Source of the DNA: a virus
Lineage: Duplodnaviria; Heunggongvirae; Uroviricota; Caudoviricetes
Strand: one strand, 5' to 3'
DNA length: 45,470 nt
Virus record (IMG/VR): IMGVR_UViG_2537562188_000009
Coordinates: 1 to 45,470 of that record
Position numbers: made by a program. Positions within the stretch are counted from its first letter, which is position 1; each line of letters begins with the position of its first letter. Positions 24,001 to 27,000 of this stretch are shown in pieces.

Positions 24001-27000
24001 TCAATGGCAAATTCAATGAGCGTCTCACTGTGCTGGTGCGATGGCAGTGTTACTTTTCCATTTTCTGATATGGTGATTTTCCCGTCATCACCGGATACAA
24101 CAAAGGATGGGCGGTTACACTCCCATTCCAGCTCACTGCAATTATCATTATGAATACTGAAACACTCTGCGAGATTTCTGCTCATCACTTTCCGACAATA
24201 ATCGTCAAACGCAGCAAACTGCTCATCGCGGCGTTTGTTTGCATCTTCAGAAGGCATCAGCGCCGACAGTTTTTTATTCAGTTCAGCAATTTCATTTTCC
24301 AGACGACTGAAGCGCTGATTCATTTCTTCATGGTTCATCACCTACTCTCCCCGTGCCGCCTTACGCCGGTCTTCTCTGATTTTGAAATACAGGTTCGTCA
24401 GATATGTCAGCAGACCAAACAGCAGACTCCCCAGCACGCCTATTGCCGCCCACTGAGACGGGGAAACCCTGTCCAGCAACTGCAGGAACCAGTAGCCCGT
24501 TCCCACCGCTGACGTGGTGTATGACACACCTGTTGTGATTTTTTCCATCTGGTACATACCCCGTCTCCCGCAATCCGGAAGCTCACAACATGAAAAAGGC
24601 CGCCAGTGCTCCACTGACAGCCTCGTGTAGTTACTCTGAGTGCTCAACAATTCCCTGTAAAACGTGTTGACATTAAGAATCGCTTTTGTGTAGAAAATTT
24701 ACCAATATAACAATAAAACCTCACCGCAGTTGCATTTCCACCAGAAGCATGGCGCATTTCTCCCTGTGCTTACTGGTGGATTTTTTTACCCCGCAAATAC
24801 CGCTGACACATATTGATAATAAGAATATTTTTCATTTAAAAACACTCACTGCACCATTTCTTCGGAGTGTCCATGGCGCTCCCCCACCAGTCGCTTACGG
24901 CAACTGGCGTTTTTTAATTTCTTACCGTTATTATTGACAACAGGAAGTGTTTTCATTAAAAAGAAGGCTCTGCACGAAAGAATCTTGCTTTTGTATTTCC
25001 ATGGGTATTAGCACCGCCAGCGTCCATTCCTGTCGCTGGCGGCTTTTTTTTATCATACCGCAGTGTCTGTGCTGTTCACTTCCACCGCAATGCTGTCAAT
25101 CAGCAGCGTATACGTCGCCGATTTTGATATATCGGTCAGTTGCAGTTTGTCCACCGCCCCCGATGCCGGTGACTTCACCAGTGTGAACGCCGCTCCCCGT
25201 TTCTCATCCAGTACTGGTGTCACCTGAATGCTGTTGTTTCCGGCAAACTCAAAAGCCAGCGTGTGCCATCCGTTATCAAAGACCCCGAATGTATCCAGCT
25301 TCGCATTCGGCTTCCTGTGATGCATCGCGTTCAGGTTCGTCGTATCCGTCTGCAGGAAGAAAGACATCAGCATATCGTTACCTTCTCCTGACAGCATCAC
25401 CCCCTCCGGCAGGGACGACAACTGCCAGTAAATGCCCAGGGCAAACTGATTCGGCACCAGTGAACCCGGCAACTTAAACCGTACGCTCACACGTCCGCCC
25501 TTCTTCAGTAACTCCGCCCCCTGTCCGGCTGCATCATGCTCCAGAAACCAGATGTGGTTTTCCGGTTTGTTCAGTTGCAGAGCCTTACCTCCCGTAGCCC
25601 CCGCATCACTGACCACCGCTTCAGCAATGTTTTTGTTAACACTGTCTCCGCCCGCCGGTTTGTGATAATAGCGCCAGCCCTGTGATGCCAGGTCTTCGCC
25701 GGATGCCAGCAGACTCATCAGGGTTCGGTTACTGACCGGGGCTTCCGCCTCTCTCTCCGGACCTTCACCGGAAGGTACGGTGGGCTTCACCATATCAGGC
25801 TGTTTTCCGGTAATGAATTCAGCGGTTCTCCCAGCGTGCACCAGAATCGCCGTTGCCAGACGGTCGGAAATAATCCCGCGGCGTGCCCAGGTGCTGAAAT
25901 GGCTCGCCCTGTCCTGTGACGTCCAGGTGGCTGAGCTGTCACGCCATTTCGAACCGTAATATCCGATACCCGGAATGTCCGGGTCTTCTTCCGGTTTGTT
26001 CGTCGGCACATTCACCCCGTTCTCATCCGTCATGAACGGTACGAAATGGATATTCTTTTCCGTTTTGTTTTTATAGCTGCCGTACACCGTCTGGTACGTG
26101 GATTCGTTCTTCTGCTTCCAGAAATACGTCGTGTCCCCGCATATCCAGGGAACACCGCCAGCAGAGCCACCAACGCACTGGCCTGCCATATCCGCCAGGT
26201 CTGCACGGAATTTATCAACCAGCGCGCCAAACTGTGCGGCGTGATTTACCGGCGTACCGCCAAAATCAAATTCCCCCTGCATCCACACCACGGCAAACAG
26301 CACATTTTTCGGGTTCTTCTTCAGTGCTGCTTTTGTTCGACCGATAAGGTCCTTATACAGCGGCTTGTCCACACCCCAGCGCGCTGAATTCTCCGAGGCA
26401 CCACTCGCGTCACTGTATGTGCCATCAGCTCCGGTGGTGAACGCTGAACCACCACGACAGCACGGAACCAGCAGAATGCCCGCATTCGCCGGTATAAACG
26501 GCAGCAATTTTTTGGCGATATGCAGCCCCTGCCCCACGGTACCGTACTGCCCCTTTGACAGGTCCGCTTTCGGATGGTTAAGGCGGCTCATGTCCTGCAC
26601 ATCATGCAGACAATGGTCCGCCGGAATGATGTCGTTATATTTGCATGCTGCACCGCCCGGTGTCACCGTACTGCGGCGCGCCAGCTGCTTAATACGCGGG
26701 TCCGGACGGTCATATGTCTCCGGCAGCGGAAGACCTTCACCATACGACATGCCGTTTGACTGCCCTGCCAGAACCACAACAAAGTAATACCCGGGGTCGC
26801 TGGTGGCGCTGATTACTGCACCTTCTCTACCTGTCGGCTTCACCACAACAGGTGTGCTCACATCACCTTCTGCGACAATCGCCTGAATAAGTGCTGCGCC
26901 ATCATCCGTATACGAAGAAAACGGCCCGCCGTATGGTTGCCATCCTTCACGAATTTTTTGAGCAAGTGTATCAGCAAGGTCTGACGGCGATGCCGCCCTG

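Follow-up and report, generated by a model that had tools for sequence, protein, structure and literature searches.

A candidate array of three small-RNA genes in the esterase-holin gap of an Stx2 prophage

The window analysed here, the 45,470 nucleotides of IMG/VR record IMGVR_UViG_2537562188_000009, covers the late region of an Stx2 prophage, which is read on the minus strand. It raises the question of what is carried by the 495 bp that separate the stop of nanS-p (25053..27080, minus strand), the gene for a SASA-family sialate O-acetylesterase, from the start of the holin gene S (24342..24557, minus strand). A sequence-only reading had seen there an antisense promoter and, further on, a terminator, and had proposed either one antisense RNA of 300-350 nt or a bidirectional hairpin, with a possible effect on the lysis genes. 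The analysis reported here gives a different answer, i.e. that the gap is probably, judged from its sequence, a head-to-tail array of three small-RNA (sRNA) genes, in units of ~120 bp, on the plus strand and convergent with the late operon. For the three units the sequence features, homology, conservation and position are shown, while transcription, start sites, Hfq binding and targets are inferred.

The gap is indeed non-coding on the minus strand, where only mechanical open reading frames (ORFs) of 36-41 aa occur, none with a Pfam match, and the Prokaryotic Genome Annotation Pipeline (PGAP) annotates nothing in the same gap in any of the complete Escherichia coli genomes that carry it (35/35). 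A degenerate protein gene was considered and rejected, the ORFs having neither a Pfam match nor similarity to the DUF826 ORF of prophage Sp5. A published paper on StxS and one on nanS-p diversity mention no RNAs in the gap, and surveys of the Q-to-S region of Stx phages mention only DUF826/DUF1378 ORFs at the esterase-holin gap. The three-unit form of the gap is present in 35 of 5,426 complete E. coli genomes; these carriers are mostly non-O157 E. coli producing Shiga toxin (STEC), of different serotypes, among which the gap is 97-100% conserved.

Both elements on which the single antisense RNA was based are present in the DNA. A perfect -35 box, TTGACA, lies at 24667-24672, and a terminator with a 9-bp GC stem (CCGCCAGCG, 25014-25022, opposite CGCTGGCGG, 25034-25042) and a T8 run (25044-25051) is separated by one base, A25052, from the nanS-p stop, which reads TCA on the plus strand (25053-25055). 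The two are oriented against the late operon as had been proposed. Although both the antisense promoter and the terminator are probably real, each is part of a different gene. The promoter at 24667 meets a strong terminator of its own ~70 nt on, and 75 bp upstream of the 25014-25051 hairpin is a perfect TTGACA that belongs to it (24934-24939); a third unit lies between. The elements that had been overlooked are, on the plus strand, terminators with T-runs ending at 24787 and 24915 and -35 boxes at 24813-24818 (TTGATA) and 24934-24939 and, on the minus strand, a hairpin with a T-run (24624..24591).

When these elements are taken together, three candidate sRNA genes can be delimited, all on the plus strand. 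Unit 1 (24667..24787) has, 18 nt beyond its -35 box, the -10 hexamer TAGAAA (24691-24696); its RNA, predicted to be ~85 nt, would start near 24703 and end at a terminator of -22.8 kcal/mol (stem 24738-24749/24767-24779, U7 24781-24787), and the unit has a folding z-score of -4.05. Unit 2 (24813..24915) has the -35 box TTGATA, the -10 hexamer TTAAAA (24836-24841), a predicted RNA of ~68 nt that would start near 24848, and a weak terminator (~24885-24909, U6 24910-24915; -9.5 kcal/mol) which contains an A-C mismatch. Unit 3 (24934..25051), the Esr41-like member, has TTGACA, the -10 hexamer TAAAAA (24957-24962), a putative start near 24969 and a predicted RNA of ~83 nt; its putative seed, UCCAUGGGUAUU (24998-25009), which is of the Esr41 type, follows a 5' hairpin and precedes the terminator that abuts nanS-p (-18.9 kcal/mol).

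These features are more than chance would give, because the gap has two of the five plus-strand TTGACA boxes of the whole 45-kb window and because matches to a composite pattern of promoter, spacer and T-run are confined to it, with a mean of 0.005 in shuffled sequence. A gapless repeat finder picked out promoter and seed repeats between units 2 and 3 at spacings of 121-128 bp, including a promoter repeat of 44 nt with 73% identity (spacing 121), the seed region and a terminator arm being repeated as well. Tandem Repeats Finder found no repeat in the gap, since the units are too diverged. A generic promoter/terminator scanner caught the gap elements only in part, and the promoters recognised by homology were not called by it.

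Evidence that the units are separate genes comes from models trained on other loci. For one of these, the covariance model R1, the training set comprised Esr41 and 14 distinct Esr41-like units from other phages, none of them taken from window-type gaps, and the search ran with filters off over both strands of the whole window. Exactly three significant full-length matches resulted, all on the plus strand, i.e. unit 3 (24934-25050; 104.6 bits, E=1.7e-18), unit 2 (24813-24918; 57.9 bits, E=2e-9) and unit 1 (24667-24787; 28.6 bits, E=1e-3), which argues against a single transcript. A fourth match (37874-37988, E=0.62) falls inside a 340-aa ORF and was discarded. The three units are likewise the top three in the window with a hidden Markov model built from only PasA, PasC, EcOnc52 and Esr41 (unit 3, 1.4e-4; unit 1, 0.076; unit 2, 0.099). 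Across 86 sources (459 kb) R1 gave 82 matches, all of which are in the esterase-holin gap and antisense to the esterase, with the sole exception of Esr41 itself. Esterase-holin gaps were also extracted from 80 IMG/VR loci with an esterase C terminus, and in nearly all 80 a unit of the unit 3 class abuts the esterase stop. A scan with the terminator motif over one genome per species gave a single chance match, in a high-GC actinobacterium and with no U-tract.

Alignment with MAFFT places the window units, PasA, PasC, EcOnc52, the Sp5 unit and Esr41 in register, the shared columns being the ATTGACA box, the A-rich -10 and the (G)CCAGC...GCUGGC terminator. The common scaffold consists of a sigma-70 -35 box, a spacer of 17-18 bp, an A-rich -10 (T-N-A-R-A-A), a body of 70-85 nt and a terminator made up of a GC hairpin with the core CCRCCAG/CUGGYGG and a run of 6-8 U behind it. 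In PasA the annotated 5' end, and in Esr41 the first position of the Rfam match, falls 7 nt past a -10-like hexamer, with 17 nt between this hexamer and TTGACA; it is by this geometry that the starts of the window RNAs were placed.

The closest experimentally studied relatives, which like Esr41 are regulators linked to virulence, occupy the same niche. PasA and PasC of enteropathogenic E. coli (EPEC) E2348/69 lie between a sialate esterase and a holin on the opposite strand, show Hfq-dependent accumulation by Northern blot and have many partners by RNA interaction by ligation and sequencing (RIL-seq) (Pearl Mizrahi et al. 2021, PMC8550237). PasC is 79 nt, and PasA is 85 nt with a minor 236-nt species that ends at the esterase stop (PMC8550237). 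When coordinates were checked, PasC was found to end one base from the esterase stop, and the PasA locus to consist of PasA and a second unit against the esterase stop, which accounts for the minor 236-nt RNA. This second unit corresponds to EcOnc52, which was reported as an Hfq-crosslinked peak in Sakai prophage Sp4 (PMC4104026), where it abuts the esterase stop; EcOnc51, which is PasA-like, comes first in an array of two units in prophage Sp12. Like PasA, PasC and their EHEC homologues EcOnc51/52, the window units are located between a SASA esterase and a class II holin, antisense to both, and share with them the TTGACA box, its spacing, the A-rich -10, sizes close to the 79-85 nt of that group and the GCCAGC/GCUGGC terminator core. 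The last terminator abuts the esterase stop in these loci also, and the PasA and Sp12 loci are two-unit arrays. An own promoter and an own intrinsic terminator, which characterise the class, are present in each window unit, with the qualification that in unit 2 the -35 box has 5/6 matches and the terminator is weak. By contrast with PasA and PasC, the bodies and putative seeds of the window units differ, their body identity to PasA and PasC being near background, and three units are present rather than one or two. Because of these differences a blastn survey of the type reported in 2026 would miss the window units; in that preprint, which used blastn, copies of the Pas genes are described as not tandem, and arrays of diverged paralogues are not described (Zhu, Shabalina & Storz 2026).

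The number of units, and what accompanies them, varies between gap types. Gaps of 666-722 bp, of which Sp5/VT2-Sakai is an example, have one unit together with DUF826/DUF1378 ORFs; gaps of 368-372 bp (L009, L011, L013 and L078) have two units, of the unit 1 and unit 2 types; the PasA locus has two units in 438 bp; and gaps of 495-496 bp with three units occur in the window and in three IMG/VR contigs (L007, L008 and L010). Unit 1, present in 47 of the 5,426 complete genomes, is always the unit nearest the holin. In its orthologues the promoter and terminator stems are invariant, with one G-C pair changed to G-U, while the loop and the 5' end have diverged, a pattern typical of sRNA genes; a central core of 17 nt, AUAACAAUAAAACCUCA, is kept. 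Unit 2, present in 44 of the 5,426 genomes, has orthologues with a perfect terminator stem that lie directly against the esterase stop.

A further type of unit (~132 nt) abuts the esterase stop in a number of other loci (L076, L077, L018, L069, L020-22, L033 and L072). Its promoter is like that of unit 1 (TTGACA, 17 nt, TAGAAA), its 5' hairpin reads CACCGAAGACUUCGGUG, and its terminator stem, CCGCCAGCAAUG..., is very long; R1 matches this type weakly or not at all.

The likeness of unit 3 to Esr41 extends beyond the scaffold. Esr41 represses cirA, chuA and bfr by direct pairing and affects genes of the enterocyte effacement locus (LEE) and flagellar genes. It is characterised by a single-stranded seed, UUCUCCAUGGGGUAUU, upstream of the terminator; the unit 3 core, UUUCCAUGGGUAUU, is the Esr41 core, UCCAUGGGGUAUU, minus one G. 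Unit 3 and, to a lesser extent, unit 2 resemble Esr41 in promoter geometry, 5' hairpin, single-stranded UCCAUGG(G)GUAUU core and CCGCC.GC terminator, unit 2 bearing only the UCCAUGG motif; this type of seed motif is absent from unit 1. Unit 3 is 88% identical over aligned columns to the Sp5 prophage unit, its closest relative, and scores 20.8 bits (E=0.28) against Rfam Esr41 (RF02676), for which the gathering threshold is 102 and the score of genuine Esr41 is 108.6 bits; neither unit 1 nor unit 2 has a match to RF02676. The locations also differ, Esr41 being next to iha on island SpLE1 of enterohaemorrhagic E. coli (EHEC), whereas unit 3 is in the late region of an Stx2 prophage.

Pairing was predicted between seed regions and ribosome-binding regions, with shuffled controls. 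Both cirA and chuA carry CCUCAUGGAGA across the Shine-Dalgarno region. For the translation-initiation region of cirA the unit 3 seed region gave a predicted -22.6 kcal/mol, compared with -25.2 for Esr41, with 0/300 shuffles as good; in the same prediction the seeds of unit 1, unit 2, PasA and PasC gave no significant pairing with cirA. By contrast with Esr41, the unit 3 seed is without the CUC of UUCUCCAUGGGG, which weakens the predicted pairing with chuA. It is thus plausible, on these predictions, that unit 3 is a partial functional analogue of Esr41. Units 1 and 2 have C/U-rich motifs resembling anti-Shine-Dalgarno sequences, the putative single-stranded core being AACCUCA in unit 1 and GUCCAUGG in unit 2.

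Several observations weigh against the three-gene interpretation. When only the experimentally detected sRNAs serve as reference, units 1 and 2 are marginally homologous to them (E=0.08-0.1), largely through the promoter/terminator scaffold and not the RNA body. The -10 hexamers are weak, with 3-4/6 matches and without the usual final T, and the scanner did not call the promoters recognised by homology. The terminator core is almost invariant, so covariation is thin, with 1/6 pairs compensated (a G-C pair that has become A-U via changes on both sides in the unit 1 lineage); with core covariation minimal, support for the sRNA hairpins comes from conservation, thermodynamics and homology. Unit 2 has TTGATA where its orthologues have TTGACA, the mismatched -9.5 kcal/mol terminator and only six U, and variants among window-type gaps affect its terminator and body; it may be a decaying copy, or its transcripts may continue into unit 3. 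With chuA, unit 3 has a predicted pairing of -13.7 kcal/mol, no better than that of shuffles (12% as good). In the Sakai catalogue obtained by crosslinking and analysis of cDNA (CRAC) with Hfq (Tree et al. 2014, PMC4104026), no peak is listed for the Sp5 unit, which multi-mapping of reads among the many Sakai prophages could explain. Finally, no Rfam family reaches threshold in the gap: searches at the gathering threshold and with E up to 10 gave only the sub-threshold Esr41 match. Rfam also fails at the PasA, PasC and EcOnc52 loci, however, so its silence on the gap is uninformative.

From the features described we infer the following for a lysogen. Host RNA polymerase would start each unit at its own promoter and stop at its own terminator, giving three separate RNAs of ~85, 68 and 83 nt, the U-tails and hairpins of which would bind Hfq, while their single-stranded C/U-rich cores would pair with the Shine-Dalgarno regions of host mRNAs and so repress them. 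Unit 3 would overlap the Esr41 regulon at cirA, which encodes an iron-uptake/colicin receptor, and less clearly at chuA. On the late strand, a hairpin would halt polymerase not modified by Q ahead of S, and a stem-loop at the S Shine-Dalgarno sequence would tune the S starts.

Three other interpretations have to be weighed against an array of autonomous sRNA genes. The original proposal, in an extended form, is that one antisense RNA of ~340-385 nt runs from the 24667 promoter to the 25051 terminator, with an action in cis on the late transcript. In its favour, both the promoter-like site and the last terminator are real, the unit 2 terminator is weak, and the minor 236-nt read-through product of the two-unit PasA locus makes it credible that some long species exist. 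Such an RNA would nevertheless need to read through two terminators, including the strong one (-22.8 kcal/mol, U7) ~80 nt past its own putative start, and would contain two further promoters which are conserved in other phages; moreover, the homologous loci have single or paired units, which make sense only if each unit is autonomous. It is therefore quite unlikely to be the main product of the gap, and can only be a minor one at most; read-through products could accompany the separate RNAs as minor species. An alternative in which the gap is decayed, functionless DNA, made of DUF826/DUF1378 remnants or of old sRNA relics with unused motifs, appears very unlikely. The degrading substitutions in unit 2, whose terminator and body are also where window-type variants fall, and the rarity of the three-unit form (35/5,426 genomes) are what it would predict, but the gap has no similarity to the Sp5 DUF826 region, in units 1 and 3 the -35 boxes are perfect and the terminators intact, promoters and stems persist in orthologues whose other parts have diverged, and conservation is 97-100% in 35 genomes of different serotypes.

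The third alternative is a role in cis. The units may be real while their main role is local, i.e. the three promoters, firing against the late operon, and the late-strand terminator would insulate the pinholin and endolysin genes from transcription that leaks through in a lysogen, or the RNAs would direct processing of late mRNA, so setting lysis timing. Between nanS-p and S, each of the three units has perfect complementarity to the late transcript, every gap type has a covarying late-strand terminator immediately before S, and the arrangement is conserved across gap types. The RNAs overlap neither the ribosome-binding site nor the coding region of S, however, their complementarity to the late mRNA being confined to its intergenic part, at least 110 nt upstream of the S start. 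Relatives of these RNAs have host mRNAs as trans targets (cirA, chuA and bfr for Esr41; the many RIL-seq partners for PasA and PasC), and Q-modified polymerase should ignore hairpins and convergent promoters. On balance a mainly local role is unlikely. The effect on the lysis genes that had been suggested earlier is unsupported, the three RNAs pointing away from S, and the suggested bidirectional element finds no support on the minus strand, on which UGCUAAUAC, with no U-tract, comes after the 25014-25051 hairpin. A combined scheme, in which the array is both a source of trans-acting sRNAs and a cis guard of the lysis cassette that blocks or processes transcripts reaching S without Q antitermination, is unlikely; were it true, the number of units (1, 2 or 3) would tune spontaneous lysis and Shiga-toxin release. 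The array of three autonomous sRNA genes thus remains the interpretation favoured here.

That prophage sRNAs occupy the esterase-holin niche is already known (PMC4104026; PMC8550237; Zhu, Shabalina & Storz 2026). What is added is modest, i.e. three members that annotation had missed, the bodies of two of which had not been described before, and the apparent sharing of one scaffold and niche by Esr41, PasA, PasC and EcOnc51/52, in arrays of one to three units with seemingly interchangeable bodies; PasA, PasC and EcOnc51/52 are all in the esterase-holin gap, Esr41 being the exception to the niche.

Tandem paralogous sRNA genes with own promoters and terminators, and with possible read-through products, are represented by OmrA/OmrB, PrrF1/PrrF2 and Qrr1-5. 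These belong to core genomes and have very similar seeds; by contrast, the window units have three different seeds and form a phage-borne array antisense to an operon. Like the anti-sRNAs AsxR/AgvB and like STnc100/PasD, the window units are sRNAs of prophage 'moron-site' late regions in which the 3' scaffold is conserved and the 5' seed varies, but those sRNAs belong to other families and lie at another site, between stx2B and nanS-p. AsxR/AgvB (RF02703/RF02702) had no match in the window at the gathering threshold, nor with E up to 10 in 24300-25300; the positive control, Sp5, scored 88.1 bits.

Stx prophages are known for sRNAs that depend on Hfq and reprogramme iron uptake, motility and virulence in the host, and the esterase-holin gap has been left blank in annotation. 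If the units are expressed, this Stx2 prophage of non-O157 STEC would give its host three extra regulators, and the Esr41-like unit 3 could lower CirA and hence sensitivity to colicins Ia/Ib. Units 1 and 2 occur in <1% of complete E. coli genomes. The shared scaffold would give a simple rule by which hundreds of prophages could be annotated for genes of this kind.

Two elements on the late strand lie in the remaining ~110 bp between the array and S, a class II, S21-like holin of 71 aa with a dual start (MYQM) at 24557 (MYQMEK...). The more distal is the terminator-like hairpin at 24591..24624 (minus strand), 39 nt upstream of the S start, with a 13-bp stem (24624..24596) and a T5 run (24595..24591), an energy of -20.8 kcal/mol and a z-score of -3.3; the scanner also found it. 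In RNAalifold with 14 distinct gap types it has 13 pairs, five of them with compensatory changes, together with many G-U pairs, which the opposite strand would turn into A-C mismatches. A hairpin is present at this position before S in every gap type, while its sequence differs by type, and it may stop polymerase unmodified by Q before the pinholin gene. A separate sense-strand sRNA ending at the hairpin was considered, but no convincing promoter was found by eye and the RNA would be only ~40 nt.

Closer to S, the initiation region is folded into a stem-loop, CUUCCG/CGGGAG (24565..24581, minus strand), which sequesters the GGAG at 24568..24565, 7 nt upstream of the dual-start codons (M1, M4). 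Its stem is invariant over the 14 distinct gap types, while the loop varies (GAUUG, GAUAA, UGUG, AGUA), and it may tune dual-start translation of S. The arrangement resembles 'sdi' of lambda, in that the Shine-Dalgarno sequence is occluded just upstream of two in-frame starts; sdi structures are a feature of lambda-type holin genes, and the comparison is with lambda and phage 21.

An inverted repeat of 14 nt, AAAAAGGCCGCCAG (24593-24606) and CTGGCGGCTTTTTT (25036-25049), 93% complementary, connects the late-strand hairpin with the unit 3 terminator, so the same terminator core is present in both orientations at the two ends of the gap, which could favour recombination or inversion.

Other RNA genes occur nearby. 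STnc100 (RF02076), which is related to PasD, is matched at full length (158.7 bits) at 27604-27816 on the minus strand, just downstream of stx2B (27891-28160, minus strand), and a TTGACA at 27830 on the same strand may be its promoter; the esterase gene is thus flanked by sRNA genes on both sides. In one of the loci with a two-unit gap (L009), four tandem STnc100 copies, three complete and one cut by the locus end, lie upstream of the esterase (1-911, plus strand), giving tandem sRNA arrays on both sides of the gene. Elsewhere in the window, adjacent Rfam matches to C4 antisense RNA (83.6 bits) and isrK (65.3 bits) at 36868-37056 (minus strand) mark another prophage RNA pair.

Two protein genes near the gap may also be mentioned. 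Between STnc100 and nanS-p, a 107-aa ORF (27270-27593, plus strand), antisense to the late operon and with no Pfam match, occupies the place of AsxR in Sp5 and is identical to WP_001398907.1, which PGAP names 'anti-adapter protein IraM'. Between S and the gene for endolysin R, which is also on the late strand, is a 186-aa ORF (23781-24341, minus strand) with no Pfam family, annotated as 'hypothetical protein' in a related genome (L088); the inside of the lysis cassette is an unusual place for an extra gene. Upstream of stx2, three tRNA genes (29222-29473, minus strand) form the usual Stx-phage cluster, with the anticodons Arg-TCT, Arg-TCG and a CAT which is assigned to Met by ARAGORN and to Ile by PGAP in a related genome.

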